A stretch of 64,000 nucleotides of DNA from an uncultured Spirochaetota bacterium (GTDB lineage: Bacteria > Spirochaetota > Brevinematia > Brevinematales > JAOACQ01), in NCBI GenBank assembly GCA_963768055.1, contig CAVYGN010000002.1:96001-160000 (forward strand). Reading direction: 5' to 3'. The first letter of the stretch is position 1. Every line of letters begins with the position of its first letter. Both the position numbers and the translations under genes were made by a program. Shown here in pieces: positions 2 through 22,741 of the stretch. The notes below the pieces were generated by a model. That model was not told where the DNA came from, searched no databases, and was given only the letters and a program-made list of their open reading frames with translations.

Positions 2-745
2 GCCCCATGTGCCTACACCGTTGCCGCAGAAATTATAGGGATTGTAATAGTGAAATGTAACGATCACATACGGGTCGTTGGGAACTATAAAATTGGTTTT
101 ATTGATAAGCTCGTACAAAGAAAACCACTGGTCTGGGCCTATCAGGACGTACCTTGTAGGGTTGCTCTTCCGTATGATCGGCAGGATCTTAGAGTCCATA
201 TCGTTAACCTGGTTCATAGTCATCGGGGCTTGCGGTTCGTTAAGGATTTCGAACATAAGGTTCGGAGATTCGCCGGAAAAATATGCGGCTATCTGCTGCC
301 AGAGGCTTTCGAACTGGGCAATATTGCCAGCGTAATCGCTGTATATCCAGTTTTCATGATGCGCGTTAAGAATGACTATAAGGCCCCTGCTTAAAGCCCA
401 ATCCACAACCGTTTTTACCCGCGCCATCCAGGCGGGATCGACTACGCCGCCCGTAATATGATACTGCCATGTCACCGGGATGCGTACATTTTTGAACCCG
501 GCGTTCGTATAATCGTCGAAATAATAAGCCTGGGCCAGGACTCCGCCTGTCCAGTCCCCTTCTGTAGGAGTGGCGTCCAGTGTGTTGCCGAGGTTGATTC
601 CCGATCCCATGCCGGTAAGTATGGCGTAAGTATTCGGATTGGAGCCGGAACCTCCGGAACCTCCGGAACCCGGAGGAGTTGAACAGGCTGCGGTCAGGAC
701 TCCCAGGACGATCAGCAAAACTGAAAAATATTTATTCTTTTTCAT
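2..745 (-). CDS. GH5 endoglucanase/cellulase-family lipoprotein, 5' part only (runs off the left edge)
   Basis: Not in the ORF track; hand translation from ATG at 745 gives MKKNKYFSVLLIVLGVLTAAC (lipobox), a GSGGSGGSG linker, then GH5 motifs GINLGNTLDA, VRIPVTW, ILNAHH, FEILNEP (acid/base Glu) and FHYY. Confidence 0.9.
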   Translation of the reverse strand, partial: MKKNKYFSVLLIVLGVLTAACSTPPGSGGSGGSGSNPNTYAILTGMGSGINLGNTLDATPTEGDWTGGVLAQAYYFDDYTNAGFKNVRIPVTWQYHITGGVVDPAWMARVKTVVDWALSRGLIVILNAHHENWIYSDYAGNIAQFESLWQQIAAYFSGESPNLMFEILNEPQAPMTMNQVNDMDSKILPIIRKSNPTRYVLIGPDQWFSLYELINKTNFIVPNDPYVIVTFHYYNPYNFCGNGVGTWG

Positions 746-5601: not shown

Positions 5602-5781
5602 GGCCTTAATCAGCCATAAAATCCCGATAAATTAAAATGTTGTATAATAAATAAAAAAGTTTTAGAATAGCAATGCAATTAGTGTCTAATAAAAAAGCGG
5701 GGCTGATAAGTATATGTTTAGGGGGTCGATGTTTTCAACGGGCGGTAGGCCCGGCGATTCATGGAGAGGAATGGGGGTATT

Positions 5782-9048: not shown

Positions 9049-9615
9049 ATGTCCTCAAATGAAAAGAACAGGGTCTGCCCGGTCGAACACGCGGGAGCAT
9101 TGGATTCCGGTTTACGCAAGATATTACATAATCCTCGAAAAATTCTAAAACCTTATATATCCGAAGGGATGAAAGTCCTGGATCTTGGCTGCGGACCGGG
9201 GTTTTTCTCCATAGAAATCGCCCGTTTGGTAGGCGGTTCGGGAAAAGTAATTGCCGCCGATTTGCAGGAAGCCATGCTTGAAATAGTTAAAGAAAAAATA
9301 AAAAACTCAGACCTTAAAAATATCATTGAATTGCATAAAACCGGCAAGGACAGGATAGGCTTATCGGAAAAGGTCGATTTCATATTATTATTTTATATTC
9401 TTCATGAAGTCCCCGATAAAGACGCATTATTTCAGGAAATAAAGACATTATTAAAACCCGGAGGGAAAGTTCTGATAATCGAACCGAAATTCCGGGTTTC
9501 AAAAATCGATTTCAGCAATTCAATCGCTATTATAAAGAATAACGGATTCGATATTATCCGACGGCCGAAAGTATTTCTCAGCCGTTCGATCGTTGTAAAT
9601 ACAGCCGGTAAATAA
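9049..9615 (+). CDS. Class I SAM-dependent methyltransferase
   Basis: VLDLGCGPG motif I; LHEV; LKPGG. Confidence 0.9.
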   Translation: MSSNEKNRVCPVEHAGALDSGLRKILHNPRKILKPYISEGMKVLDLGCGPGFFSIEIARLVGGSGKVIAADLQEAMLEIVKEKIKNSDLKNIIELHKTGKDRIGLSEKVDFILLFYILHEVPDKDALFQEIKTLLKPGGKVLIIEPKFRVSKIDFSNSIAIIKNNGFDIIRRPKVFLSRSIVVNTAGK

Positions 9616-9621
9616 TATATA

Positions 9622-12600
9622 TTAAGACTTGTAATCGACACACAATATGGCCCTGTCGTCATGCAAAGGCGCGCCGCCGCTGAATTCGTTTACATCCAAG
9701 AGGACACACTCGATATATTCCGCGGGAGTCTTTTCCGCACACTTAACTGTCATTTCAAGAAGCCTTTTTGTATCGTAAAGATCGCCATCTTTATTCATTG
9801 TTTCCACTATCCCGTCTGTGAACATCACCAGCCTGTCGCCCTTTTCAAGAAATACTTCACCGCACTTATATGTCGAATTCATTGTCAATCCGATATATCC
9901 GCTTCCTGTTTGAAGCCTCTCGATTTTACCCGTTTTCCTCCTGTAAAGTATGGCCGGCTGGTGAGCGGCGTTAGTAAACTCAAATCTTCCCGTGCCGACA
10001 TCCAGTATCCCGAAGAATACTGTGAGGTCATGCTCGCTCATCTCTCCAACAAATAAACAGATATCCTTATTGACGCTGTAGCAAACTTCGGCGGTCGTTT
10101 TGCCAGTAAGGGCGTCAGTGTTAAAGCTCGCTTTAGCCATTGCCGTCATCAGGGACGCCGACACTCCATGCCCGGATACGTCGGCCATCAGGAAACCGTA
10201 ACGGTTATCGTCGATCTTTATTATATCGTAAAGATCGCCCCCAAGGTCCTCCATCGCTAAGTATTTTCCCGATATATTCAGGTCGGCGCACTGCCTGAGG
10301 GCTTCCTCCTTAGGCAGGAAGCTTGCCTGGACCTTCTGTGCAATCTTCAGTTCGTCGAGCATGGCCTGGTTTTTAGCCGCCAGTTCTTTTGTCCTTTCGG
10401 CAACTTTGACCTCCAGGTTCCTGCTGTAATCCTCGAGCCGGCCGTAAAGCCCGGCGTTCTCAATGGAAATAGCGGCCTGCGAAGACAGTGTGGAAAGAAG
10501 CTCGATCCGCCTTTCAGGGAACGCATTCGTAATTAGATTGTTCTCTATATAGAGGATGGCCACAAGCCGTCCCTGATTTATTATAGCCGTGCAGAGAATG
10601 GATTTGGGCTTATAAGCTTTTATATATTCGTCTCCAGCCCATCTGCCGTCCGATGCGGCATCGTCGATTACGACGCTCTCCCTGCTATTGGAAACATATC
10701 TTACAATAGAAACACATATCTTATCTTCTTTTTCAATTGGTATGTTCTTCAATATATCAGGTTCGTTAACTGTCAATATTTCCGCTTTTGCCTGGATAAA
10801 AAGCTTCCCCCCTGAATCGGGCATTATCAAAAATCCTTTCTGGGCCCCCGCGTTCTCCATCAATATTTTTATTGTCTTGCTGAGCAGAGCTTCAAGGTTC
10901 ATCTCGCCGGCCATAATATTGGAAGACTTTAGAACTGTACTGATATCTAAGGTGCTGCCTCTAGTCGAACTGGAACCTGGTCTTTTACTGGTTGTCGATT
11001 CCGATATGGTCCCGGAATCGAGCCCGGCTTCTTTAACAATGTCGTAATCACTTTCAATGGACGTGATAATGGCAGGGTTCTTTATTCGTAAATCCTGCAA
11101 TTTACCTTTGGCTCCCCAGCTCTGGTAGGTAAGATATGCTTCTTTTAGGTAAAATTCAGAGATCTTCTCCAATCCTATCGATTGATAGAAGAGGCCGGTG
11201 TGTTCCAGAATCATTGCTTTTTCATGGGCAAAGCCGTTCTTTCCCGCTTCTTCCGCCGCCCTTTCGTAGAGCCTCATCGCTTCCTCGTTCTTCCCGAACC
11301 TCGCGATAAGTTCCGCTTCAATGAAAAGCTGCTTGTGCAGGCAGTTTTCTGGGCAGAGCATTGCCCATAAAGTCATCTTTTTCAGGATCGAATCAATCGT
11401 TTTTAAATTTTTCTTCCATAAGTTTTTATTTGCATCAGGATAATTGCCAAGAAGTGACAGGGCGTAGAAATAATAAGAATCTCTATAAAGGCTATTACCC
11501 ATAATGCCTTTAAGGGGCTTTTTTACCTCCAGCGCATAATTTAAAGAGCCTTCGTAATCGTTATACAAATAATGTATAAATTGCTTGAATACCAGGTAAA
11601 AAGCGTACGGATTCATATTCTTGACTTTCTTCCAATAGTCTATGATTGCCTTTTCATCGCAAGAAGGCCCTGAAAAAGAGTATTTGTCATCCTTTGCACC
11701 TGTAAGATTAAGGGCTAAATTCTGCCATAATTTTATTTCTTCAGCTATACGAGGCTGCTTCAATTTTGTGGACTGAATATCGAATAATTTCGCTTTTTCA
11801 CATATTGATTCCAGGTTTTCGCTTAATAAAATAGAAGTCATAAGATTAACATCAATGCTATAGGCAGCGTATTCAAGGTCACCCGTCTCCATACTCAATT
11901 TGTAACTTTCTTCAAATAAAGCAATAGTTTCGCGGAGCGGTTTAACCCAGTGGTACAATAGAAAACCTAGAGCAAAAGTAACTTTACTTTGTACAACTTT
12001 CGTATTTATTTTATTTTTAAACATATATGCAATTTCACCAAGCTGATAACCGCGTTTATAGTTTCCCAGTACCGATGAAACAATATATCCATAAGCCGAA
12101 TAGGCATAAGCGGAATACATGGAGTTTCCATTCCTTAGGGAAAAATTCAGCAATTTTAGTACAATTATTGGTAAATAATCAGCATCGAACATAAAAACCG
12201 GAGAAAGTATTTGTATGAAAAGCTGCGCTATGGCTATTTTTTTAGGCTCATCAAGTATGGGCAAGTTCATCAGAGCCTCGATACCCTTTTTCTTCGTCAG
12301 CTTCTTAACAAGGCTGTTGGCTTTCAGTAATTCATTAATTATATAAATAGGGTTCGCTTTCCCCGGCAATTTCATTCCAAGAAGAGACAAAGCCTTTTTA
12401 CCCTGCTTGATCGCCAATTCCATTTTATTATACGACGTATTCAAAGGTATTTGGATACTGTAAACTTTAACCTCGTCCATTATATCTTTCGCGTTTACCA
12501 TTACTTCATTGAAATGCTTTTCGGCTTTTTCATGTTCTCCAGTAAGATAATCAGCTTCTCCGGCTTCAGTATGAAAGTCTAAGGTTAGTTTATAATATGT

Positions 12601-14895
12601 TTTCCATGAATCTTCAGGAAGAAGTGATAATCCGGCATTCAAAAAATTACTTGCCGAATCATATGCTACCGACATTTTTGCCCTTATCCCCGCTTTTAAA
12701 TTAAGTTCTGCAAGATAGATCTTTTCTTCTTGAGTATTTATAATGCCTATAGCGTAATTTAATTGTGAAGCGACCTCAAAAATCCTTTCATCGACCTGCT
12801 CAGGTTTTAAATTATTGATGAGTGTTTTACCAATCACATAATGGTTTTTTTCTCTTTCTTTCTTATCAATTAAATTGTATACCGTTTCTTTTAACCGGTC
12901 ATGCGCGAACCTTATCTTTTGACCCGAGGCGATCAGGAAACCTTCGTTTACAGCCGGTTTTAAAGCCTCGTATGTTTCTTGTTCTGTCCTGCCTAAGACA
13001 AGGGATAATATATTGATATGAAAATCCGGACCTATGCAAGAAGCTGTCCTTATGAATTTCAAAGTATTTTCAGGAAGTTTTAAAATCTGCCCTGAAATAA
13101 ATTCCGCGACATTCCCGGTAATTTCAGCGTTTTTTATTTTATCGATATCCCATTTCCAGCCATTTCTGAATACTATCATCTCCTTGTCATAAAGGGTCTT
13201 GATCAGACCGTTCACAAAAAACGGGTTACCCCTTGTTTTTAGTTCTATTACATCGGCAAGTTCTCCAGTCGTTTTCACATCACAATACAAAGTATCACTC
13301 AAAAGTTTCGATATTTCACTGGAAGTGAGTTTTGTAAGTTTTAATTCTTCCAAATTAACATTATCCTTATTAATATTATCAATAAATTTCGTTAATTTGC
13401 TTTCCTTTCCAACTTCATTGTCCCTGTAAGCGCCCAGAAAAAGGAAGTGACTGAGACTATTATCAGTTAAAACTGCAGAAAGCAGCTTAAGGCTTGCATC
13501 GTCAGCCCACTCCATCCCATCCAGAAAAAATACGAGAGTCTGCTTTTTTCCGGCAAATACTCTTATAAAATTCTGAAAAACATAGTTGAACCTGTTTTCA
13601 GCTTCCGACGGGGCAAGATCTATAACCTTAGGCTGATCGCCTATGATAACTTTAAGCTGCGGCAGTTCATGTACGATAACATCTCCATTTTCCCCGACAC
13701 CTTCCATAATTCTCTTTTTCCATCCTTTAAGCTTTTCTTCACTTTCAGATAACAGGCGCCCTATTAAACCGTTAAAAGCGTCAATAATAGCGGAAAGCGG
13801 CATTGATATTCTGGCCTGGTCGAATTTTCCCTGAATGAAAAAACCATTTTTCTCGGCCACAGCCTTGCTCATTTCATTTACAAGGCTCGATTTTCCAATG
13901 CCGGGCTCTCCAGTTACAATAACTACTTTCTTTTCACCAGCGGCAGCCTCGTTTAATATTCCCTTTAGATAATTTAATTGCTTTTCCCGGCCGTAAAGTT
14001 TTTCCGGTATAGAGAGCTTTTCAGGAAGATCGTTTTCTCCGGGTAAAAAGTCAGAAATTTTTGATTTTTCTAACAACTCTTTTAAGCATCGCTCCAGATC
14101 CGTTTTTAGACCGTAAGAGCTTTGATATCTCTCTTCCGCATTTTTTGAAAGCAGTTTCATCACAATGCCTGATAATGCCCCGGGAATTTCATGGTTTATA
14201 TCGGACGGGTTTGCCGGTGTTCTGGCAATATGCGCATGCACGATTTCCATCGGATCTTCAGCTTCGAATGGGACTTTCCCCGTCAGCATCTGGTAAAATG
14301 TCACTCCGAGCGAATAATAGTCGGTTCTGTAATCGATTGAACGGTTCATCCTTCCGGTTTGTTCCGGTGATATATATAACAGTGTGCCTTCGAGCTGGTC
14401 ACGCGTTATTATTTCCTGAACTTCCCTTGAAAGTTGCGTCGATATACCGAAATCTATGATCTTGACTTCCGAAGTCTTCCTGTTTAAAAGTATATTATGC
14501 GGCTTTATGTCCTTGTGGATGATATTCTTTTTATGTATTTCCCCCAGAGCCTCTATTATCTTCAAACCGACAGGCAGAAATTCTTTTAACGCAAACTTTC
14601 CCTGCTTTAATATTTTATCAATAGATTCACCTCCGAAATCCTCTTCAACTATTATCAGGGCATTTTCAAGCTTCACGAGTTCGTATACTCCCAGAACTCC
14701 TTCCACGCCTCCAAGGCTTTTCATTACATTATATTCATATTCGAAGTTTTTAAGTTCTTCATGATTTGGATATGAGTTCTTCAGCGTCTTCATTACGACC
14801 TGCCTTTTATTTCGCAGGTCTTCGGCCCTGTAGATTATATTTTTTCTGCCTGAATAAATTTCATCCGATATTTTGTAATCTTTGGGATTGATCAT
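9622..14895 (-). CDS. Multidomain signalling protein: Ser/Thr kinase - AAA/STAND-type ATPase - TPR-like helices - GAF - SpoIIE/PP2C phosphatase
   Basis: HKDIKPHN, IDFG and YISPEQ kinase motifs; Walker A GEPGIGKS; GAF (SILCTAI..ILYIEN); PP2C motifs GGDLYD, ADVSGHG, FTDG and DDRA. Confidence 0.92.
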   Translation of the reverse strand: MINPKDYKISDEIYSGRKNIIYRAEDLRNKRQVVMKTLKNSYPNHEELKNFEYEYNVMKSLGGVEGVLGVYELVKLENALIIVEEDFGGESIDKILKQGKFALKEFLPVGLKIIEALGEIHKKNIIHKDIKPHNILLNRKTSEVKIIDFGISTQLSREVQEIITRDQLEGTLLYISPEQTGRMNRSIDYRTDYYSLGVTFYQMLTGKVPFEAEDPMEIVHAHIARTPANPSDINHEIPGALSGIVMKLLSKNAEERYQSSYGLKTDLERCLKELLEKSKISDFLPGENDLPEKLSIPEKLYGREKQLNYLKGILNEAAAGEKKVVIVTGEPGIGKSSLVNEMSKAVAEKNGFFIQGKFDQARISMPLSAIIDAFNGLIGRLLSESEEKLKGWKKRIMEGVGENGDVIVHELPQLKVIIGDQPKVIDLAPSEAENRFNYVFQNFIRVFAGKKQTLVFFLDGMEWADDASLKLLSAVLTDNSLSHFLFLGAYRDNEVGKESKLTKFIDNINKDNVNLEELKLTKLTSSEISKLLSDTLYCDVKTTGELADVIELKTRGNPFFVNGLIKTLYDKEMIVFRNGWKWDIDKIKNAEITGNVAEFISGQILKLPENTLKFIRTASCIGPDFHINILSLVLGRTEQETYEALKPAVNEGFLIASGQKIRFAHDRLKETVYNLIDKKEREKNHYVIGKTLINNLKPEQVDERIFEVASQLNYAIGIINTQEEKIYLAELNLKAGIRAKMSVAYDSASNFLNAGLSLLPEDSWKTYYKLTLDFHTEAGEADYLTGEHEKAEKHFNEVMVNAKDIMDEVKVYSIQIPLNTSYNKMELAIKQGKKALSLLGMKLPGKANPIYIINELLKANSLVKKLTKKKGIEALMNLPILDEPKKIAIAQLFIQILSPVFMFDADYLPIIVLKLLNFSLRNGNSMYSAYAYSAYGYIVSSVLGNYKRGYQLGEIAYMFKNKINTKVVQSKVTFALGFLLYHWVKPLRETIALFEESYKLSMETGDLEYAAYSIDVNLMTSILLSENLESICEKAKLFDIQSTKLKQPRIAEEIKLWQNLALNLTGAKDDKYSFSGPSCDEKAIIDYWKKVKNMNPYAFYLVFKQFIHYLYNDYEGSLNYALEVKKPLKGIMGNSLYRDSYYFYALSLLGNYPDANKNLWKKNLKTIDSILKKMTLWAMLCPENCLHKQLFIEAELIARFGKNEEAMRLYERAAEEAGKNGFAHEKAMILEHTGLFYQSIGLEKISEFYLKEAYLTYQSWGAKGKLQDLRIKNPAIITSIESDYDIVKEAGLDSGTISESTTSKRPGSSSTRGSTLDISTVLKSSNIMAGEMNLEALLSKTIKILMENAGAQKGFLIMPDSGGKLFIQAKAEILTVNEPDILKNIPIEKEDKICVSIVRYVSNSRESVVIDDAASDGRWAGDEYIKAYKPKSILCTAIINQGRLVAILYIENNLITNAFPERRIELLSTLSSQAAISIENAGLYGRLEDYSRNLEVKVAERTKELAAKNQAMLDELKIAQKVQASFLPKEEALRQCADLNISGKYLAMEDLGGDLYDIIKIDDNRYGFLMADVSGHGVSASLMTAMAKASFNTDALTGKTTAEVCYSVNKDICLFVGEMSEHDLTVFFGILDVGTGRFEFTNAAHQPAILYRRKTGKIERLQTGSGYIGLTMNSTYKCGEVFLEKGDRLVMFTDGIVETMNKDGDLYDTKRLLEMTVKCAEKTPAEYIECVLLDVNEFSGGAPLHDDRAILCVDYKS

Positions 14896-15139: not shown

Positions 15140-15826
15140 CTATATATTTTTATTCCATTGATTCCCAGTCGAAGCATCGTAATCAATCCTTTTAATCATA
15201 TTAAGATTTATCTCATTTAGAGAATTTATCAAGTACTTAACTCCAGTCTTAACCATATCTTTTTTCTGATATCCCCATGTATTTGATGAAGGCATTCCAA
15301 TAAAAGGCACATTTAACGACTTTGCAGCCTCGGCTACCATATTGACGTCGTCAATGAACAATGCCTCATTATATTTAAGATTATAAATTTCAGTAGTGAT
15401 TTCTTTTATTCCCGGTCTGAAATCATTTGTACAAACGTACATCGTAAAATATTCGGTATATTGCTTCATTTCTTTACGATAATATGTTTCGGGCAATCCT
15501 CCATAGCAAATTATCAATAAATTAAGCGATTCAATTAATTTTAGCAAATAATCTAAACCTTGATTGAATCCACTTCCATTTCTATTTATAAATTCTTCCC
15601 TTTCTTTAAAATAAATCTTAATTAATTCATCCGTACTAAGATCTAATTTAAATAAATTAATCAGATATTCGGCGGCTTCTTCTCTTTTTTGTGAAAATAT
15701 ATTTCTTTCAATATCCCTGTTATAAGTTCCCCCAAATTTTTCTACCAATAACTTTATTACCGGGCTGAAAGTGTCTTTCAGCAGGACTCCGTCTATATCG
15801 AAAGCAACGAGCTTGAGTGTCTTCAT
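15140..15826 (-). CDS. HAD-superfamily phosphatase
   Basis: AFDIDG motif I, LFIDD motif IV; start ATG 15826 after AAGGA. Confidence 0.82.
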   Translation of the reverse strand: MKTLKLVAFDIDGVLLKDTFSPVIKLLVEKFGGTYNRDIERNIFSQKREEAAEYLINLFKLDLSTDELIKIYFKEREEFINRNGSGFNQGLDYLLKLIESLNLLIICYGGLPETYYRKEMKQYTEYFTMYVCTNDFRPGIKEITTEIYNLKYNEALFIDDVNMVAEAAKSLNVPFIGMPSSNTWGYQKKDMVKTGVKYLINSLNEINLNMIKRIDYDASTGNQWNKNI

Positions 15827-15845
15827 AAATATTTCCTTGTAAAAA

Positions 15846-16613
15846 TCATCTCTGAATACCTGCAAGCGCTCCCCCATCAATAGGGATTATACAGCCTGTA
15901 ATATATGAGGAAGCCTCGGAACACAAAAACATTACAACTTGAGCTACCTCTTCTGTTGAGCCTTCTCTTTGTAAAGGTATCATTTTTTTTATTATTTTTT
16001 CGGAATCCGGACCTGAAAAATACCTTTCTTCGTTGATCGGAGTTTTTATCAAACCCGGACAAATAGCATTAATTCTTATTTTATACTTAGCAAAATCCAG
16101 AGCAAGGGCTTTTGTTAGGCCTATAGCTCCATGTTTCCCTGCACAATAATCCTCGACCAGATTTGTGACTGAAATACCCCAGCCGGAGGATGTATTTATA
16201 ATTGAGCCTCCCCCATTCTTGATCATATATTCAATTTCAAATTTCATACATAACCACAAACCCTTCAAATTAATGTCTATTGAATAATCCCATTCCTTCT
16301 CTGTTCTTTCAAGGATAGTTTTCCGTGATGAAGAAACACCGGCATTATTGAATGCATAGTCAAGCCTTCCGAAATGATCAACCGTTTTCGAAATAAAATT
16401 TGCGACATCGTCAATTTTTGATACATCACATTGAATAAACAGGCAATCACCACCCGCTTTTTTAATATCATTTGAAGTTTCGGCTCCCTTTTTTAAATCA
16501 CGCCCGCAAACCGAAACTTTGGCTCCTTCCTTTGCAAATGAAAAAGCGGCTGCCCTGCCGATGCCGGATGTTCCGCCGGTTATTGCAATAACTCGATCTT
16601 TGAATCTCAACAT
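15846..16613 (-). CDS. Classical SDR oxidoreductase (FabG/glucose-dehydrogenase-like)
   Basis: TGGTSGIG, FNNAG, NTSS, YCAGK, ICPG, DGG. Confidence 0.92.
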   Translation of the reverse strand: MLRFKDRVIAITGGTSGIGRAAAFSFAKEGAKVSVCGRDLKKGAETSNDIKKAGGDCLFIQCDVSKIDDVANFISKTVDHFGRLDYAFNNAGVSSSRKTILERTEKEWDYSIDINLKGLWLCMKFEIEYMIKNGGGSIINTSSGWGISVTNLVEDYCAGKHGAIGLTKALALDFAKYKIRINAICPGLIKTPINEERYFSGPDSEKIIKKMIPLQREGSTEEVAQVVMFLCSEASSYITGCIIPIDGGALAGIQR

Positions 16614-16672: not shown

Positions 16673-17488
16673 TTATCTTGCGCCGGGGTAGACCCTGTAA
16701 ATCTTTTTTGACCTTTTATCTGTTAAAGCTTTAAATATTATTTTAGCGGCTGCATCCGGAGACATTCTTTTATCTTTAGACTTATTTTGCTCATTTATCA
16801 TTTTATCGAGTTGTTCTGAATAAAACTCCGCTTTATCAGGCTGCAATAGTCCGAAATGCTCTTTTAATTCTTTTACAGCTTTAATTTTTGCACTTGTTTT
16901 AACGCCGCGGCATTTTATTTTGATCACGGGTATTTTCCAGGGAGCCAGTTCATCATTCAAAGTATCAACTAAACAATTCAAAACGGCGTCGCACATATAG
17001 AGGCTTGAAACGAATGGGGAAGTCTTTTTAGAATCTGTTAAAATCCAGACGATTCTTCCATTATTTTCTTTAATCATAGGAAGAAATGTCTGAATCAATC
17101 CGATTGGCCCCAAAACTCTTGTTTCGATCTCTTCCCTTAATCTTTGAAGATTCATCAATTCAACAGGCGATAAGTATGCACCGCCGGCGTTATTAATCAC
17201 TGCGAATAATCCTTCCGGACCGAGTTTATTTAATTTCTCTGAGATAAAATCATGAGCCATAGCAATATGATCCTGATTTCTAAGATCAAACGGAAAAACC
17301 GGTATAAGATTTGGATTATTATAGGATATTAACATATCTGCATCGCTTTTTTTACGGACAGCAGCAAACACGTTAAAACCGTTATCGGCGAATAACAAAG
17401 CACAACTGAGGCCGATTCCCGAAGAAGTTCCTGTTATCAGAATACTTTTTCTTGGAAATGCCGCCTTTAATGAATTATCCCGTTTCAA
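16673..17488 (-). CDS. SDR-family protein, paralog of 3149..3994, atypical catalytic site
   Basis: TGTSSGIG, INNAGG; SLYMCD in place of YxxxK; TTG start. Confidence 0.8.
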   Translation of the reverse strand: MKRDNSLKAAFPRKSILITGTSSGIGLSCALLFADNGFNVFAAVRKKSDADMLISYNNPNLIPVFPFDLRNQDHIAMAHDFISEKLNKLGPEGLFAVINNAGGAYLSPVELMNLQRLREEIETRVLGPIGLIQTFLPMIKENNGRIVWILTDSKKTSPFVSSLYMCDAVLNCLVDTLNDELAPWKIPVIKIKCRGVKTSAKIKAVKELKEHFGLLQPDKAEFYSEQLDKMINEQNKSKDKRMSPDAAAKIIFKALTDKRSKKIYRVYPGAR

Positions 17489-17851: not shown

Positions 17852-19165
17852 ATGAAAAGGCCTTTGTCTTCTATGGAAAATATACTTTATTTAAGGAATA
17901 AAATAACTCCCTATAATTGTTTTGTAAGCATACATATCAAAGGTACTCTTTCCACTGATGTATTCGAACAAGCTCTTGAAATGACAAAAAAAAGGCACCA
18001 ATATTTATTTTATTACATTCTTGAAAACAATAATGTAGCCGAGTTTTTTTATGATGCCAAAGCAAGCATTCCGGTGAGAGAAGTTTATAATGCTGAAGAA
18101 AATAATTGGGTTGATGAATGCAATGCCGAATTAAATATACCTTTTGATTTGGCTAAGGCTCCATTAGCAAGAGCTGTTATTCTAAGGAAAAAAGATGGAG
18201 CCGATATAATTATTATTTTTTCTCACATAATCTGCGACGCCGTTTCTATGGTCTATTTTGCATATGATCTGCTGAAGGTAATAGATCATTTATATGAAAA
18301 CCAGAGTATTGATTTTCTCGATGAATTACCGGATATTTATCCGGAGGTGAAATATTTACCCGATATATCAAAACAATTACATTCATACGAGAAAATTGAA
18401 AAGACTATAGCATACAATAATATAAGTGATAATAATTACCCCATTGAAAAGCGCTCTACTAATATCATTACCTGCTGGCTGAATGAAACGCAAACCGAAT
18501 ATATTATTAGTCAATGTAAAAAAAGAAATATAACCGAAAATTCTCTAATTGCTGCCGCTTTAATAATAAATATGAAAAATTATATTTTCAATAAATATCA
18601 AATAAATAATAATTTTATGATAAAAACAGGCTCATCATTAAATGTAAGAAAATATTATTTATGTGATATTAATAATTCGCAATTCGGATGCTGGGATAGA
18701 AACGGATTTATTGATTTTAAAGTTGAGGAAATAACAAATCTTTGGGATTGTGCCTTGATATATGATGATCGTTTAAAGGAATTGATTGAAAAAGGCAAGC
18801 CATTTTCAATACAAAAAGAAAGAGTAAATGATTATTCAAATTATTCAATGTCTGATATTATAAAAAAAAATGAAAATTCAACTCCTTTTGTCGGATTAAT
18901 TAATCTTGGAAAATTTGAATTGAATGAATATTTCAATGGAAAGATAAAATTGGAAAAATTAAGTGTCGGAGGGCCGTTACATCTATATTGCAAAAACGAT
19001 TTGGGGTTTGGAATAGTTGATATAACTTATGATAATCGATTAAATTTAATATTTTATTATGTGAAGCCTACACGCACTCAAATTGAAGCGAAAATATTCG
19101 CCATGGATTTTTTAAAATTGATATTCGAAAACAATCAAGATTTACTAAAAGAAATTAATCTTTAA
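17852..19165 (+). CDS. Stand-alone condensation-domain / PapA5-like CoA-dependent acyltransferase
   Basis: RPLS..E start, KRH.YL, ELNIPFDL..APLAR, FSHIICDAVS (HxxxD), INLGK. Confidence 0.78.
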   Translation: MKRPLSSMENILYLRNKITPYNCFVSIHIKGTLSTDVFEQALEMTKKRHQYLFYYILENNNVAEFFYDAKASIPVREVYNAEENNWVDECNAELNIPFDLAKAPLARAVILRKKDGADIIIIFSHIICDAVSMVYFAYDLLKVIDHLYENQSIDFLDELPDIYPEVKYLPDISKQLHSYEKIEKTIAYNNISDNNYPIEKRSTNIITCWLNETQTEYIISQCKKRNITENSLIAAALIINMKNYIFNKYQINNNFMIKTGSSLNVRKYYLCDINNSQFGCWDRNGFIDFKVEEITNLWDCALIYDDRLKELIEKGKPFSIQKERVNDYSNYSMSDIIKKNENSTPFVGLINLGKFELNEYFNGKIKLEKLSVGGPLHLYCKNDLGFGIVDITYDNRLNLIFYYVKPTRTQIEAKIFAMDFLKLIFENNQDLLKEINL

Positions 19166-19197
19166 TAAAAAAATAATTTATATGGAAAATTATCGTT

Positions 19198-19848
19198 ATG
19201 GAAGGATTTTTAATTGATTTTGATGGAGTCATTCTAAAAAATTTCCCTGATCTGGTTTCTAAATTTATTTATAATTATATAAATAAGTTAACACCTATAA
19301 ATTATGAAACAATAATATCGTTTGTACGCCTTTTCATAAGTTTTCCGACTAAGGATTTTTTTACATTTCTTTTTAATTCATTGGGAATAGAAGAACACTT
19401 TGAAGATTTTATAAATAAAGTTTCTAATTTGGAAGATAACGGTGAAATAAAATTCGAAATCGATGATTATTTCAATACTTTCATAGATAAATGTAATAAC
19501 AACCAAATAAATTTTAAAATATTCTCTATGGCTGATACTAGGAGAATTTTAAAAACAATTCATAATATTAAACTGGAAGATATTTATTCTTTATGTGAAA
19601 ATTCCAAATCAAATACAAGGACATTTTCTCATCTACAAAAAGAATTAAAAATTGATTTAAATAAATGGGTTTTAATTGATGACGATCCTTTTTCATTGAG
19701 ATCAGGCAAATTAAATGGAATGTTTACGATTATGATGCAAAATAATGTTTTTGGCGAATCAGAATATTATTTATATAAAGATTATATCGATGTTAAAGTT
19801 AATTCTTTTAAAGAAGTTATTGATTATTATTTTAAAGGCTTTCGATGA
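19198..19848 (+). CDS. HAD-superfamily hydrolase
   Basis: LIDFDG motif I; LIDDD...GKLNGM motif IV. Confidence 0.72.
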   Translation: MEGFLIDFDGVILKNFPDLVSKFIYNYINKLTPINYETIISFVRLFISFPTKDFFTFLFNSLGIEEHFEDFINKVSNLEDNGEIKFEIDDYFNTFIDKCNNNQINFKIFSMADTRRILKTIHNIKLEDIYSLCENSKSNTRTFSHLQKELKIDLNKWVLIDDDPFSLRSGKLNGMFTIMMQNNVFGESEYYLYKDYIDVKVNSFKEVIDYYFKGFR

Positions 19849-19907
19849 ATATTAATGCCTGTATAATCAAATTAAGGCATGTGGCAAAATAATAATTGGA
19901 GAACAAT

Positions 19908-21203
19908 ATGCCGATTTTAGGCAGGGATTTGAATGAATTGGAAAACGCATGCTATCTGCAAAATAAAAGTGCGCCTTTTAACATTGTTATTTGCTTGCAC
20001 TTCAAAGGCTGTTTGGCGTATGAAACTTTTGCGGAAGCACTGGAAATAAACAGAGCCAGGCATTATTATTTATCCTGCTTTATAGAGGAAAAGGATGGGG
20101 TTCCAAAGTTCGTATATAATAATAATGTCAAAATTCCTATAAAAATTATGAATTCTGATTACGATAACCAATGGGTCAATGAATGTAAGGAACAGATGAA
20201 TTGCCCTTTTGATCTCGGGAAAGCTCCGCCTGCTAAAATAATCTGGATAATAAAAAATAATTCCTCTGATATAATTTTTAATTTTTCACATATAATATCT
20301 GATGGAATTTCCATGATGAATTTTATAATTGATTTATTTAAAACTCTGAATATTTTATTAAAAAAGGAAAAAATAACTATCAAGAAAGAAACCGAAATTT
20401 TTCCAGATATAAGGTATTTTCCTGATAATTTTGATAATTTGAATAAAAAAAAAGATGAATCCCTTATTATGGATTGGCTTGAAAAGGTAAAATCTTATAA
20501 GATTGAAAACAGGTCTTCCAATATAATAGTCTGCCAATTAAGTAAAGAAGAAACAAGGGAAATTATCAATAGATGCAAAAAAGAAGATACTACCATAAAT
20601 TCGATGCTTGCTGCCGCATTAATCTTAAGTATGAAAAATTATATCCTGCAAAAGTATGGTGTAACGGAGGATTTCCTGATTAATACCAGCTCGGGATTGA
20701 ATTTGAGGAAGTTTTATAAATGCGCCGTATCGGATCGTCAATTGGGGTGCTGGGCAGGAAAGGGTTATATTTTATACAATTCAAGAAATGTCGGGTCTTT
20801 ATGGGATTGCTCAAGGGACTATGAACAAAGATTATATCAAAATATCAATTCGGGCGCACCTTTCTTATATCTGAAAAAGAGTTTTGAAATTTTAAAGCGG
20901 TATCAAGCCGGTGAAAAAGCATTAAAAAAAGAAAATAATTTACCAAGTGTAATGCTTACAAATCTTGGTAAAGTAGATTATATCGATCTGTATAGTAACG
21001 AAACAAAATTAGAGAAAATCAGTTTTACTTCGCCGATGTACCGGAATTGGCCCAGTGATTTAGGTTTTGGAATTTGTGCTTTGACATACGATAATCAATT
21101 ATCGATGGTATTTCAATATATGAGTCCGGCATGGATCGATAGCGAAGCTAAAAAATATGTCAATAGCCTATTGAAGCTGATGGATATTAAGGCTAAAAAT
21201 TAG
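19908..21203 (+). CDS. Second condensation-domain / PapA5-like acyltransferase (paralog of 17852..19165)
   Basis: RARH.YL, PFDLGKAP, FSHIISDGIS (HxxxDG), TNLGK; shares QxGCW, LWDC and DLGFGI with the first copy; alternative TTG start 19896. Confidence 0.8.
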   Translation: MPILGRDLNELENACYLQNKSAPFNIVICLHFKGCLAYETFAEALEINRARHYYLSCFIEEKDGVPKFVYNNNVKIPIKIMNSDYDNQWVNECKEQMNCPFDLGKAPPAKIIWIIKNNSSDIIFNFSHIISDGISMMNFIIDLFKTLNILLKKEKITIKKETEIFPDIRYFPDNFDNLNKKKDESLIMDWLEKVKSYKIENRSSNIIVCQLSKEETREIINRCKKEDTTINSMLAAALILSMKNYILQKYGVTEDFLINTSSGLNLRKFYKCAVSDRQLGCWAGKGYILYNSRNVGSLWDCSRDYEQRLYQNINSGAPFLYLKKSFEILKRYQAGEKALKKENNLPSVMLTNLGKVDYIDLYSNETKLEKISFTSPMYRNWPSDLGFGICALTYDNQLSMVFQYMSPAWIDSEAKKYVNSLLKLMDIKAKN

Positions 21204-21241: not shown

Positions 21242-22516
21242 TCAACCCTTCTTCCTGTCAGTCCTGAGATGGCAGAAACGCTTGACCGCTTGTTTCAGGT
21301 TGTCTTTATCCGCTTTCACAATCCTGTTTATATGAAAACCTCCGAAAAAACTCTCGTTTTCATTCCGGCTCCATCTCTGGTGACATCCTCCCCTGACAAA
21401 ACCGATCACCGGGAAATACATGATGAAGTCGTAATCTTTTTGAGACGCTTCCTCGCCCACGAATTCGCCTATTTCTATGCAGAAACCATTTAATGAAATA
21501 TCTATCAATTTCCCGACATAGTAATCTTCCTTATCGGAACTCCATAGGGAAGTGGGACAAAGTTCGGGATCGACGGGGTAAAACCTGTGAGCGGGGTTTG
21601 TCATGTTCCTTCCCTCGCGGAACCTTGAAAAGAGCTTTTTACTCATAATACGGCCGTCTATATCGAATTCAGTGCAGACCACGCCTTTTTGAAAAATTGA
21701 AACGAGGGCTTTAGCCCATGTCCATTCGCCGTTCTTATCGTCAATTCTTAAAAAATCGGCTTTCATCCCGATGGGATAATGGAGGTCGATGTAATCGATA
21801 AACTTGGCATTGAAAGTATTTAAAGCGATCTGGGAACCCTTTAACGGTATGTTGCCGAAAACATGGCAGCAGGCTATGGTCATCTGCCTCGCCGCTTCCA
21901 TGACCATCATGCCGGGGACATGCTCCTGGTGATGCTCGAAAAAAAAGCTGTGCCGCATATCTACAAGCATTTCGGCGTAAAAAACATTTTCCTTTTTAAA
22001 AGCTTCAATGGATTCGAAAATTTCATAAAGGATCATTTTTTCATGATTGGTGAGGCTGATATCCTTTTTGCTCAGGATATCCTGGATGGCCCTGTCCTCG
22101 AACTCTGAAAGGCTTTTCTTTAACAGGTAGCAATTGTACTTCTCGTTTTTCCTGTAATAGTTCATTAGAAAATCATGGTCTTTTTTAGAAAGCTTCAGAT
22201 CATTTTCAAGAAAATCTGCCTCGATCGTATGCGGTATATTAAAGAGAATATAACATTCCCTGTTATGAATTATCGGATCGGAGGTATCCTGTGATTCTTC
22301 ATTAACGGGCAGCGGAGCGCCCGGTTTATGGAAAATATAGTATTCCAGGAATATCGCTAAGTCCGGGAGCGTTAAAGAGGGTATGATGATGTTTTCAACA
22401 GTTTCCTTTTCGATGCAGTATGGAATGCTCCTTCGGAGACCCCTTAAAAAGACATTCTCCGGGTATTTCTTATGGACATATTTTCTATCGACAGCCTTGT
22501 CCGCGCCATTACGCAT
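21242..22516 (-). CDS. AfsA/ScbA-related hotdog-domain protein with C-terminal PilZ-like domain
   Basis: N-terminal VDRKYVHK..PENVFL and HSFFFEHHQEHVPGMMVMEAARQ match AfsA-family motifs; C-terminal HRF...GKLIDISLNGFCI...RWSR...GFH fits PilZ (DxSxxG). Confidence 0.82.
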   Translation of the reverse strand: MRNGADKAVDRKYVHKKYPENVFLRGLRRSIPYCIEKETVENIIIPSLTLPDLAIFLEYYIFHKPGAPLPVNEESQDTSDPIIHNRECYILFNIPHTIEADFLENDLKLSKKDHDFLMNYYRKNEKYNCYLLKKSLSEFEDRAIQDILSKKDISLTNHEKMILYEIFESIEAFKKENVFYAEMLVDMRHSFFFEHHQEHVPGMMVMEAARQMTIACCHVFGNIPLKGSQIALNTFNAKFIDYIDLHYPIGMKADFLRIDDKNGEWTWAKALVSIFQKGVVCTEFDIDGRIMSKKLFSRFREGRNMTNPAHRFYPVDPELCPTSLWSSDKEDYYVGKLIDISLNGFCIEIGEFVGEEASQKDYDFIMYFPVIGFVRGGCHQRWSRNENESFFGGFHINRIVKADKDNLKQAVKRFCHLRTDRKKG

Positions 22517-22741
22517 AAAAAAGGTCTCCGTGGGTCGCAGTTAAATCCCCCGTACAAAAGACCCATGTTTTATTATAAAAACAAATAAATAAAAATATCA
22601 AGAATTGAAATATAACTGAATTGAAAAATAACATTTTTTCACTGAAAAAAGCAATAGAAAAAGGTTATAAAATTTATTTGACATAACGATATTGATTTAT
22701 TAAATTAAAAACAATATTTTACACTCTTAAAGGAGGGATGT

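Follow-up and report, generated by a model that had tools for sequence, protein, structure and literature searches.

The gene at 21242..22516 encodes an AfsA-type protein built on a single hotdog, which is interrupted by an inserted domain and followed by a C-terminal PilZ-fold domain. It is proposed here, with moderate confidence, that this protein is a homodimeric AfsA-type synthase of a butenolide- or butanolide-like molecule. The PilZ-fold domain would serve it as a regulatory or docking module and not as a canonical c-di-GMP switch. To our knowledge, butyrolactone and butenolide 'bacterial hormones', as well as the AfsA-type synthases, are described almost only from actinomycetes. In these organisms, the butyrolactones and butenolides are sensed by TetR-family receptors.

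All the coordinates are positions in the window, i.e., the whole stretch of 64,000 nucleotides that was analysed. The loci are labelled L, and the family proteins are labelled P. The features of the gene are as follows:

21242..22516, minus strand: the whole gene, with an ATG start and 424 aa; single-hotdog AfsA-type enzyme, inserted domain and C-terminal PilZ-fold domain
22572..22601, minus strand: promoter-like site TTGATA-18-TATAAT, ~55 nt ahead of the start codon, proposed from the consensus match alone (11 of 12 positions)
22430..22516, minus strand: N-terminal hotdog strand, aa 1-29, with the VHK..ENVF..LRR motif, taken from the FabZ alignment of the model
21992..22429, minus strand: family-specific inserted alpha/beta domain, aa 30-175, lying within the hotdog and conserved in relatives
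21641..21991, minus strand: AfsA hotdog body, aa 176-292, with the central helix HVPGMMxxEAxRQ (Pfam AfsA at aa 174-287)
21584..21640, minus strand: post-hotdog helix F296-x-R298-x-R300 and the loop to H310-R311, aa 293-311 (helix 293-303 in the model)
21263..21583, minus strand: PilZ-fold beta-barrel and C-terminal helix, aa 312-418, with D339-I-S-L-N-G344 kept and RxxxR absent

The domain boundaries were checked with AlphaFold and Foldseek. The full-length model (pLDDT 91.3, pTM 0.87) contains one AfsA-type hotdog with a long insertion, and its C-terminus forms a PilZ barrel, in agreement with the original prediction. The AfsA N-terminal motif named there was located as VDRKYVHK at aa 9 and ENVFL at aa 20. 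The one hotdog repeat said to carry HVPGMMVMEAARQ was also recovered; the motif starts at aa 199, and Pfam AfsA (PF03756) matches the protein in one stretch (aa 174-287, profile positions 17-130 of 133; E 3.3e-19; 69.7 bits, above the cut-off of 24). In the model, the single hotdog is formed by aa ~4-30 and 174-292. The N-terminal segment is a part of this one hotdog, as FabZ chains align over positions 4..294 of the model (7qv0_A: Z 16.1, rmsd 2.6, 136/139 residues aligned).

The key columns of the hotdog are strongly conserved among 83 relatives. In the N-terminal strand, H15 is kept in 77, K16 in 74 and R28 in 78 of them. E207, R210 and Q276 are invariant (83/83), H199 and Q211 are found in 82/83, and in the helix after the hotdog, R300 is kept in 78/83 and R298 in 63/83. 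Hsiao et al. are said to have found in 2007 that the Glu and Arg of the active-site helix motif are essential in ScbA. In the AfsA homologues from Streptomyces, it is the second repeat that aligns with this hotdog, the motif H..FFEH...HVPGMMxxEAARQ being near-identical. Nevertheless, the layout of two tandem repeats in a chain of ~300 aa, as in canonical AfsA/ScbA/BarX, was not found; there is one Pfam stretch and one hotdog with an insert. The match to the NCBIfam ScbA/BarX model (NF041195) spans only profile positions 198-265 of 290 and scores 55.6 bits, under the equivalog cut-off of 200. Because this cut-off is missed and one repeat is present instead of two, the substrate and the product may differ from those of AfsA.

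It can be argued that the hotdog works as a dehydratase of the FabZ/FabA kind or as a thioesterase rather than as an acyltransferase, and that its likeness to AfsA reflects only a shared hotdog ancestry. FabZ is indeed the best structural match, and hotdog thioesterases follow at Z ~13. When the PDB was searched by sequence, using the family profile, no AfsA structure came up, and the fold search is, therefore, unable to separate AfsA from dehydratase or thioesterase activities. However, the AfsA profile is found in all 83 full-length relatives, whereas FabA appears, and weakly, in only 2/83. The protein also carries the AfsA signature HVPGMMxxEAxRQ with its invariant Arg. Further, the phosphatase neighbours and a phosphatase fusion, described below, suit a phosphorylated acceptor. 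A dehydratase or thioesterase is quite improbable, and an AfsA-type activity is retained as the preferred reading.

The insertion had been described as about 150 aa of unrelated, Tyr/Lys-rich sequence. A long insertion is present (~145 aa), but it is a conserved and confidently folded domain and not an unrelated filler. Its richness in these residues is only mild (Y 6.2% and K 9.6%, against 4.5% and 8.3% in the whole protein). When modelled in isolation, it reaches a pLDDT of 82.7, and it has well-kept columns of its own among the 83 relatives (Y60 in 77, Y121 in 76 and L132 in 76). It occupies the place at which, in the insert-free AfsA forms, the N-terminal strand leads directly into the hotdog. 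Such forms, which lack the PilZ domain as well and are 185-212 aa long, are present in L022, L023, L025 and L026. No Pfam domain was found within aa 30-173, the best Foldseek match to the insert alone has an E of 0.51, and none of 48,161 solved chains resembles it at Z>=5 (best 3.7). It was also considered that the insert might be a decayed first hotdog repeat. This idea was rejected, as the FabZ alignment bridges the insert, joining the N-terminal strand to aa 174-292.

The homodimer was checked by structure prediction. A hotdog-type homodimer is predicted with an ipSAE of 0.67 in three runs against 0.00 for the best control, a score that may also reflect the memory of solved complexes, since hotdog dimers are common among solved structures. 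The ipSAE mark was reached by 20/30 proteins solved as pairs and by 1/23 solved as single chains. The runs have at least 60% of their contacts in common, with a partner pLDDT of at least 76, and the predicted interface comprises residues 16-18, 21, 190-195, 202-210 and 231-242. On this model, two copies would pair via the hotdog sheet and replace the two-repeat pseudo-dimer of Streptomyces AfsA. The conserved H15/K16/N21, H189, E194/H195, E207 and R210 would then line the dimer interface.

The C-terminus had been called PilZ-like, and a failure to fold as a PilZ barrel had been named in advance as the outcome that would speak against it. A PilZ barrel was found. The model superposes on 3kyf, i.e., PP4397 with c-di-GMP (Z 13.1 and rmsd 2.6 over 109 aligned residues; positions 307..418 of the model against 123..238 of the chain). 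The top Foldseek matches of this region, namely PP4397, VCA0042, MotI, MrkH and MapZ, are all PilZ proteins, and the family profile matches PP4397 at E 0.006. Pfam PilZ (PF07238) matches the protein itself at aa 329-411 with an E of 0.22 and 12.3 bits, under the cut-off of 22.5. The homology is supported via the family, because 44 of the 83 relatives match PilZ at E<=0.01, the best at 5.6e-10.

The two sequence motifs of c-di-GMP binding show a different fate in this domain. The DISLNG motif was located at aa 339, as claimed earlier, and gives the [D/N]hSxxG pattern as D339-I-S-L-N-G344; [DN]xSxxG is kept in 53/83 relatives. RxxxR is expected ~20-25 residues upstream of it, and none was found in any register from aa 271 to 340, the local sequence being N307-P-A-H-R311-F-Y-P-V315. 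Among the relatives, RxxxR is present at the canonical distance in only 9/83, and both motifs occur at canonical spacing in only 8/83. These eight are scattered singly on the tree and need eight separate changes, no better than shuffled labels (500/500), and the motif pair is thus not under family-wide selection.

Of the earlier statement that the first Arg of RxxxR is missing (NPAHR, aa 307), the absence of RxxxR stands. The position of the lost Arg is less settled, as R311 may correspond to the last Arg of the motif, to its first or to a flanking one. The strand that starts at 312 and the structural alignment that starts at 307 favour the last; so does the RxxxRhxh pattern of PilZ domains, as given in 10.1101/814665. 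The 8 relatives with an Arg at position 315 favour the first, and the HMM alignment to PA4608 puts R311 on the middle Arg. R311 is itself kept in 64/83 relatives and F312 in 71/83, and among the 64, an Arg lies four residues before R311 in 1 and four residues after it in 8. The upstream R298/R300 were considered as a displaced, PilZ-specific RxxxR. This candidate was rejected, because AfsA proteins without a PilZ domain carry the equivalent F-x-R-x-R stretch after their hotdog too, and the stretch belongs, therefore, to the enzyme part.

The original prediction had offered two alternatives for this domain, namely that c-di-GMP directly gates the synthesis of a small-molecule signal or that the PilZ is a non-binding interaction module. 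For the first, the domain would bind c-di-GMP via D339/S341/G344, R311 and perhaps an Arg of the preceding helix, and would switch the AfsA-type activity on or off. It is consistent with an intact fold close to a c-di-GMP-bound structure and with the retention of [DN]xSxxG, R311 and F312 in most relatives. Of the 8 both-motif relatives, 5 were scanned, and all 5 score above the Pfam cut-off for PilZ. The host genome also has 28 GGDEF and 16 canonical PilZ matches, and PA2989 is reported in 10.1101/814665 to bind c-di-GMP with an imperfect second motif. Because the PilZ domain is conserved, with [DN]xSxxG in 53/83 relatives and 28 GGDEF matches in the genome, some non-canonical binding of c-di-GMP may still occur. 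Against these points stand the loss of RxxxR in every register, the rarity of an Arg at either spacing from R311, the scattered appearance of the motif pair, the sub-cut-off PilZ score of the protein and the presence of the upstream Arg residues in PilZ-less AfsA forms. Moreover, the same source describes PilZ domains without the motifs as unable to bind. Direct gating thus gains no support from the motifs and is unlikely, and the non-binding or interaction module is the more likely of the two alternatives. On sequence grounds, the domain is unlikely to be a c-di-GMP gate of the canonical kind, and a regulatory or docking module is the role most likely for it, the RxxxR half of the c-di-GMP site having been lost.

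The family to which the protein belongs is sizeable. Homologues comprise 405 cluster representatives at E<=1e-3 and 63 at E<=1e-30, and the architecture is thus not a product of chance. In the ESM Atlas, AfsA-related clusters alone were returned. The family is mainly spirochaetal and is present in 35 of the 301 genomes sampled from the phylum; one genus among the carriers accounts for 18 near-complete genomes of about 4 Mb. Natural fusions suggest the partners of the enzyme. P0022 joins a TubC_N docking domain and an ACP to the AfsA-type family and PilZ, and in P0042 the AfsA-type family and PilZ are followed by a HAD domain at the C-terminus. This HAD shares 36% identity over 227 aa (E 3e-50) with HAD1, a hydrolase encoded near the synthase in the window. 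AfsA hotdogs are also found as terminal domains of PKS modules in P0123, P0137 and P0141. The natural ACP and HAD fusions lead to direct and testable hypotheses on the substrate and the pathway.

The gene neighbourhood was compared across 25 loci (the window, L001-L020, L060, L061, L063 and L064). The neighbours in the window are as follows:

9622..14895, minus strand: 1757-aa Ser/Thr kinase - AAA_16 - TPR - GAF - PP2C (SpoIIE) protein by Pfam, candidate sensor or regulator
15140..15880, minus strand: HAD1, HAD-family hydrolase (Pfam HAD_2), candidate pathway phosphatase
15846..16613, minus strand: FabG-like SDR (Pfam adh_short_C2, E 2.5e-62), candidate keto- or ene-reductase
16673..17488, minus strand: second SDR oxidoreductase (Pfam adh_short, E 2e-22)
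17852..21203, plus strand: opposite-strand low-GC block with domains by Pfam (GC 26.7% at 18-20 kb)
17852-19165, plus strand: condensation/PapA-like acyltransferase by Pfam
19198-19848, plus strand: HAD2 by Pfam
19896-21203, plus strand: second condensation/PapA-like acyltransferase by Pfam

Homologues of these genes recur beside the synthase elsewhere. Those of HAD1 adjoin it in L004, L012, L013, L016, L061 and L064, those of HAD2 in 10 other loci and those of the FabG-like SDR in L010, L018, L019, L060 and L061. Altogether, a HAD hydrolase is present in 13/25 loci, a reductase (SDR, NmrA or OYE) in 8/25 and either of them in at least 16/25. In the remaining 9/25 neither was seen; several of the nine lie on short contigs, but the flanks of L001 are 8 kb long. 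In the window itself, the helper genes do not share one operon with the synthase, as the opposite-strand block intervenes. The HAD and reductase neighbours fit the route of AfsA, the BprA reductase and a phosphatase, as published in PMC11877004.

The giant kinase, with its GAF region at aa ~1333-1478, is another recurrent neighbour. It has a homologue in the flanks of 12/24 other loci, hence in 13/25 with the window, although the order and orientation vary. In L060, the kinase gene, the synthase gene and an SDR follow directly upon one another on a single strand. The own genome, of 3.69 Mb, has only 3 such giant paralogues. When PAS histidine kinases are counted along with it, sensor kinases adjoin the synthase in 16/25 loci. 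STAS, anti-sigma-kinase and PP2C genes adjoin in L004 and L007, and a TetR gene of the ArpA-type family lies beside the synthase in L019 only.

These neighbours also bear on the nature of the product. The enzyme might start a specialised lipid or metabolite pathway, for instance to acylated or phosphorylated butenolides, or off-load carrier-bound polyketide or fatty acyl chains, with the kinases acting merely as regulators. The two condensation/PapA-like acyltransferases beside the gene, which have homologues in L010 and L061, agree with this, as do the terminal AfsA hotdogs of the PKS modules and the docking domain and ACP of P0022. Salinipostin-type phosphotriesters are likewise reported to be made via an AfsA homologue (10.1101/2020.10.11.335315). 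However, the condensation genes occur in only 3/25 loci against 16/25 for adjoining sensor kinases, and there is a single synthase gene per genome. The minimal recurrent set of synthase, phosphatase and reductase is, in addition, that of the autoregulator route in PMC11877004. A product that is not a diffusible signal is, on the whole, unlikely.

By analogy with AfsA, the preferred synthase would load dihydroxyacetone phosphate, or a phosphorylated acceptor like it, with a beta-ketoacyl group taken from an acyl carrier protein. The resulting phospho-butenolide would be reduced by the neighbouring SDR, NmrA or OYE reductases. Its subsequent dephosphorylation by the neighbouring HAD hydrolases would yield a small molecule of the butenolide or butanolide type. 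As for a regulator or sensor of this pathway, the best candidate would be the giant Ser/Thr kinase-STAND-GAF-PP2C protein, or PAS histidine kinases in some lineages. A further-reaching proposal joins the AfsA-PilZ synthase, the HAD, the reductases and the giant kinase into a spirochaete-specific, hormone-like signalling module. In such a module, a butenolide- or butanolide-type autoregulator would be sensed by the GAF domain of the kinase (by PAS histidine kinases in some lineages) and relayed to partner-switching regulators. The PilZ-derived domain would tie the synthesis to the signalling state, via either residual c-di-GMP binding or docking to the kinase. This proposal is speculative and, taken as a whole, doubtful.

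A search of full-text literature, in which subscription journals and supplements lay outside the scope, found no paper describing an AfsA-PilZ fusion. There was likewise no full-text match for AfsA along with c-di-GMP and the PilZ domain, for AfsA and butyrolactone together in Leptospira or the spirochaetes, or for PilZ and hotdog with c-di-GMP. Among the matches listed for AfsA along with PilZ, all were author-name noise. AfsA, hotdog and A-factor are absent from the PilZ papers 10.1101/814665, PMC11800159 and PMC12943098. What is at hand is a differently built AfsA enzyme that is spread through the spirochaetes. If its product is a signal, it would mean chemical signalling between or within cells in a phylum for which no such type has been described, a new class of receptor and the first PilZ-derived domain on a small-molecule synthase. 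If the signalling module were true, it would be a butyrolactone-type system outside the actinomycetes with a non-TetR receptor. If the product is a lipid and the PilZ turns out to be inert, the result is a modest extension of the diversity of the AfsA family.

Among the known systems, the closest comparison is with AfsA/ScbA/BarX of Streptomyces. They have in common the hotdog family, the near-identical active-site helix motif, the VH[KR]..E[NV] N-terminal strand and the x-R-x-R helix after the hotdog. Reductase and phosphatase genes are also nearby, as the published pathway requires (PMC11877004). The spirochaetal protein differs in having one repeat and, where they have a two-repeat pseudo-dimer, a predicted homodimer, in its host, which is not an actinobacterium, and in its score under the equivalog cut-off.

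One-repeat AfsA-related proteins of ~360-400 aa are also found in proteobacteria such as Photobacterium, Pseudoalteromonas, Gilliamella, Brenneria and Rhizobium (L021, L024, L028 and L030-L032), and they are the nearest ESM-Atlas clusters (0.97, 0.96). Their order of parts is the same: the N-terminal strand is followed by an insert of ~100 aa, the AfsA hotdog and, lastly, a C-terminal region, which in L021 and L024 aligns to aa 189-413. An SDR lies downstream, and L021 has an OYE reductase. However, the identity over the hotdog is ~24-31%, their insert is shorter, and their C-terminal motifs look more eroded (DIGLSG in L021). BLAST found no giant kinase in the flanks of these proteobacterial loci.

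The PilZ barrel superposes on that of PP4397 and shares [D/N]hSxxG with MapZ/PA4608, PP4397 and PlzD/VCA0042. Cellulose synthase BcsA and alginate Alg44 are PilZ-gated synthases. The PilZ structures of both are mentioned in 10.1101/814665. As in BcsA, a PilZ domain is fused here to a biosynthetic enzyme. Unlike these synthases, the spirochaetal protein has no RxxxR and a sub-cut-off PilZ score, and its enzyme part would be a cytosolic small-molecule synthase, whereas theirs make polysaccharides.

The FabZ/FabA single-hotdog dehydratase dimers give the best structural match to the catalytic domain, and the predicted dimer appears to use the same sheet-to-sheet interface, with conserved residues placed there. 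The sequence profiles, however, point to AfsA, and the insertion and the PilZ domain are extra. In terms of gene organization, a parallel is offered by CqsA/CqsS, a gene pair of autoinducer synthase and sensor kinase. In both, a small-molecule synthase gene is found beside a large sensory kinase, recurrently so in the spirochaetes. The synthase families are, nevertheless, unrelated, and in the spirochaetes the candidate partner, a Ser/Thr kinase-STAND-GAF-PP2C protein, is cytoplasmic.

The AfsA-PilZ gene, hereafter the synthase, is an intact open reading frame in which every motif string quoted in the original prediction was located: VDRKYVHK at residue 9, ENVFL at 20, HVPGMMVMEAARQ at 199, NPAHR at 307 and DISLNG at 339.

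21242..22516 (-), AfsA-PilZ open reading frame, ATG start, 424 aa
about 55 nt upstream of the gene, promoter-like site TTGATA-18-TATAAT (consensus match only)

A word-based search identified 11 full-length relatives at 35-63% identity. HMMER, run exhaustively against 1.84 billion cluster representatives, matched 405 of them at E<=1e-3; of these, 132 pass E<=1e-10 and 63 pass E<=1e-30. The 83 HMMER matches of 380-440 aa were aligned (alignment A2), and all of them match the AfsA profile. Conservation spans the whole protein, including the middle region earlier called unrelated; pairs drawn from the 11 closest members have an average identity of 0.51 in the N-terminal strand, 0.37 in the insert, 0.52 in the hotdog and 0.39 in the PilZ region. 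Judged by sequence, the AfsA-PilZ proteins form a real, sizeable and uncharacterised family, of which no description was found in the literature searched (AfsA with PilZ, c-di-GMP, butyrolactone, spirochaetes or hotdog). Its full-length members come from Spirochaetota, under the record titles Brevinematales, Leptospiraceae, Leptospirales, Spirochaetales or Salinispira. When the phylum was sampled evenly, matches at E<=1e-20 turned up in 35 of 301 genomes, representing 12 of 125 genera; 18 of the positive genomes belong to one genus of ~4 Mb, with completeness of 99-100%. A homologue from the same genus as the window (G211:C4:347123-348376) contains one in-frame TAG, which could mark a pseudogene or stem from a sequencing error. 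In a Leptospiraceae MAG, fragments of a group II intron reverse transcriptase and maturase lie directly 5' of the AfsA-PilZ gene (L010:6573-7517).

The single hotdog repeat proposed earlier is borne out. Pfam AfsA matches one stretch, aa 174-287 (profile positions 17-130 of 133, E 3.3e-19, 69.7 bits, cut-off 24). The AlphaFold2 model built with A2 has a pLDDT of 91.3, falling below 50 at aa 71-80 only, and a pTM of 0.87. The single-hotdog FabZ chain 7qv0_A superposes on model residues 4..294 (Z 16.1, rmsd 2.6, ~136 of 139 residues matched). Since single-hotdog FabZ chains align across this span, the N-terminal strand (aa ~4-30) and aa 174-292 make up one hotdog. The inserted domain occupies aa ~30-175, where insert-free forms pass uninterrupted from the N-terminal strand to the next; such forms, of 185-212 aa, with neither insert nor PilZ, are found at four other loci (L022, L023, L025 and L026). 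The insert had been described as Tyr/Lys-rich and unrelated. It is mildly Tyr/Lys-rich, but it is conserved across relatives and folds when modelled on its own (pLDDT 82.7). None of 48,161 solved-structure chains matched it at Z>=5 (best Z 3.7), nor did Foldseek find a match among solved structures (best E-value 0.51). The AfsA hotdog is thus split by a conserved, novel insert.

The synthase is probably a homodimer, as modelled. Two-copy predictions gave ipSAE values of 0.67, 0.66 and 0.67 over three runs, with the best control at 0.00. That mark is attained by 20 of the 30 proteins whose solved structures are pairs and by 1 of the 23 whose solved structures are single chains, and memory of solved hotdog dimers may explain the score. 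At least 60% of contacts are common to the runs, and partner pLDDT is 76 or higher. The predicted interface (residues 16-18, 21, 190-195, 202-210 and 231-242) consists of the hotdog sheet and conserved residues, and has the same arrangement as in FabZ.

The C-terminal domain is confirmed as a PilZ barrel at the level of fold. The PilZ domain of PP4397 solved with c-di-GMP (3kyf) overlays model residues 307-418 (Z 13.1, rmsd 2.6, 109 aligned), and the best Foldseek matches are all PilZ proteins, namely PP4397, VCA0042, MotI, MrkH and MapZ. By sequence, the family profile recovers PP4397 (E 0.006) and PA4608 (E 0.06). Pfam PilZ is sub-threshold on the window protein (aa 329-411, E 0.22, 12.3 bits, cut-off 22.5); though this copy is under the cut-off, the domain is taken as homologous to PilZ because 44 of the 83 relatives match at E<=0.01 (best 5.6e-10).

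The domain appears to carry half a c-di-GMP site. Residues D339-I-S-L-N-G344 satisfy [D/N]hSxxG, and no RxxxR was found across aa 271-340. As to which arginine is missing, the lines of evidence conflict. The assumption that R311 is the last Arg, and the first is lost, is favoured by the RxxxRhxh pattern set out in bioRxiv 10.1101/814665, by a strand that begins at aa 312 and by a structural alignment that begins at aa 307. The eight relatives that carry R315 instead point to R311 being the first Arg, and an HMM alignment to PA4608 sets it on the middle one. R311, F312 and P314 are conserved in 64, 71 and 64 of the 83 relatives; among the 64 keeping R311, Arg occurs at -4 in one and at +4 in eight. 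The helix F296-x-R298-x-R300 was considered as a displaced PilZ motif and ruled out, as x-R-x-R also follows the hotdog in PilZ-less and Streptomyces AfsA proteins.

It was also suggested, as one of two alternatives, that c-di-GMP gates synthase activity through this domain, which we consider possible yet unlikely; motif conservation gives it no support. RxxxR 23-24 residues upstream together with [DN]xSxxG occurs in 8 of 83 relatives, [DN]xSxxG alone in 45 (including the window protein), RxxxR alone in one and neither in 29. On a tree built from non-PilZ columns, the eight two-motif members need eight independent changes, and shuffled labels fare no worse (500/500); therefore, the complete signature is not maintained by the family. 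The same preprint states that c-di-GMP cannot be bound by PilZ domains without the motifs, and cites PA2989 as a binder despite an imperfect second motif. The window's genome has 28 GGDEF and 16 canonical PilZ matches; with such plentiful machinery, a non-canonical link to c-di-GMP is conceivable. The L060 homologue (9243-10556 (-), from the ~4-Mb genus) retains its motifs in the opposite pattern to the window's copy, with RxxxR-like RILDR 20 residues before NISNSG. The original prediction of an AfsA-type enzyme with a long insertion and a PilZ-like domain is, in sum, upheld and sharpened to a split hotdog, a probable dimer and a putative half site.

The neighbourhood of the synthase is as follows.

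16673-17488 (-), SDR, downstream of the synthase
15846-16613 (-), FabG-like SDR, downstream of the synthase
15140-15880 (-), HAD hydrolase (HAD1), downstream of the synthase
9622-14895 (-), Ser/Thr kinase-AAA_16-TPR-GAF-PP2C protein of 1757 aa (giant kinase), downstream of the synthase
17852-21203 (+), low-GC block with two condensation/PapA-like acyltransferases and a second HAD hydrolase (HAD2), between the synthase and its (-) partners
23309-25123 (+), methyl-accepting chemotaxis protein (MCP), adjoining the synthase divergently
5761-8532 (+), protein of 923 aa, rich in ankyrin repeats, with an S9 peptidase-like C-terminal segment, unusual among bacteria

The low-GC block, with 26.7% GC at 18-20 kb against ~42% in the surroundings, resembles an inverted segment or a cassette that was acquired. 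Its acyltransferases bear HxxxD(G)-type motifs, and homologues of its genes are present in L061 (same genus as the window) and L010. An MCP also lies immediately 5' of the synthase on the same strand at L015:2-1186 and L019:5918-8014, and within 5 kb at L020; these neighbours hint at a possible chemotaxis link.

Twenty-five loci were compared: the window, L001-L020, L060, L061, L063 and L064, with L062 left out as a duplicate of L001. The fetched flanks hold a HAD hydrolase at no fewer than 13 loci, a reductase (SDR, NmrA-like or Old Yellow Enzyme) at at least 8, and one or the other at at least 16; the giant kinase is found at at least 13, and either it or a PAS histidine kinase at at least 16. 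All these are lower bounds, as several contigs are short and some neighbours unscanned. Neighbour order and orientation differ among loci. L013 has synthase-HAD1-HAD2-kinase on one strand; L060 has synthase, SDR and kinase contiguous on one strand; L020 has a different HAD 5' and two OYE ene-reductases 3' of the synthase; and L004 and L007 have additional STAS, anti-sigma-kinase and PP2C partner-switching genes. Chance adjacency is unlikely, because the window's genome has a single AfsA gene and, over 3.69 Mb, no more than three paralogous giant kinases. Bacterial alpha-2-macroglobulin genes encoding ~2,000 aa lie divergently 5' of the synthase in Spirochaetales/Spirochaetaceae MAGs (L017:1685-7720, L020:870-6917). 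In Streptomyces butyrolactone systems, the receptors belong to the TetR family; a TetR-family regulator was seen at one locus only, in a Salinispira genome, where it stands two genes away from the synthase (L019:9972-10646 (-)).

Natural fusions speak for an acyl donor bound to a carrier protein and for a phosphorylated intermediate. P0022 (591 aa) joins a TubC_N docking domain and an ACP to the AfsA-PilZ family region and a PilZ domain over the cut-off (26.3 bits); P0024 joins a docking domain to a family member; and P0042 (644 aa) has the family region, then PilZ, then a HAD. This HAD is homologous to HAD1 (36% identity over 227 aa, E 3e-50), and its comparison with HAD2 gave no homology. 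In P0123, P0137 and P0141, the AfsA hotdog is the last domain of PKS modules (KS-...-ACP-AfsA, AT-...-AfsA), which suggests AfsA-type off-loading of carrier-bound chains. On balance, we favour a reading in which the synthase would start a butenolide- or butanolide-type small-molecule pathway, the adjoining reductases and phosphatases would finish the product, and large sensory kinases would be coupled to it. The donor and intermediate match the published AfsA route (PMC11877004), where AfsA catalyses the condensation of beta-ketoacyl-ACP and DHAP, the butenolide phosphate is reduced by BprA and a phosphatase acts last.

The residues of the hotdog are strongly conserved in A2: E207, R210 and Q276 in 83 of 83, H199, Q211 and P248 in 82, and H15, K16 and R28 in 77, 74 and 78, respectively. 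The L060 copy has lost the N-terminal VHK motif, its helix reads HISGMQIVEASRQ, and its catalytic motif is more divergent than the window's. A search of PDB sequences with the family profile found no AfsA structure. With NCBIfam NF041195 (ScbA/BarX), the window protein reaches 55.6 bits over profile positions 198-265 of 290; the cut-off is 200, and by that measure it is not an equivalog. The order of its parts is common to a related proteobacterial family of ~360-400 aa. In Streptomyces AfsA homologues with two repeats, it is the second (match at aa ~234-305 of their open frames) that the hotdog of the window protein resembles, and the H..FFEH...HVPGMMxxEAARQ motif is nearly the same. Two-repeat AfsA forms a pseudo-dimer within one chain, and in the window protein the predicted homodimer would take its place.
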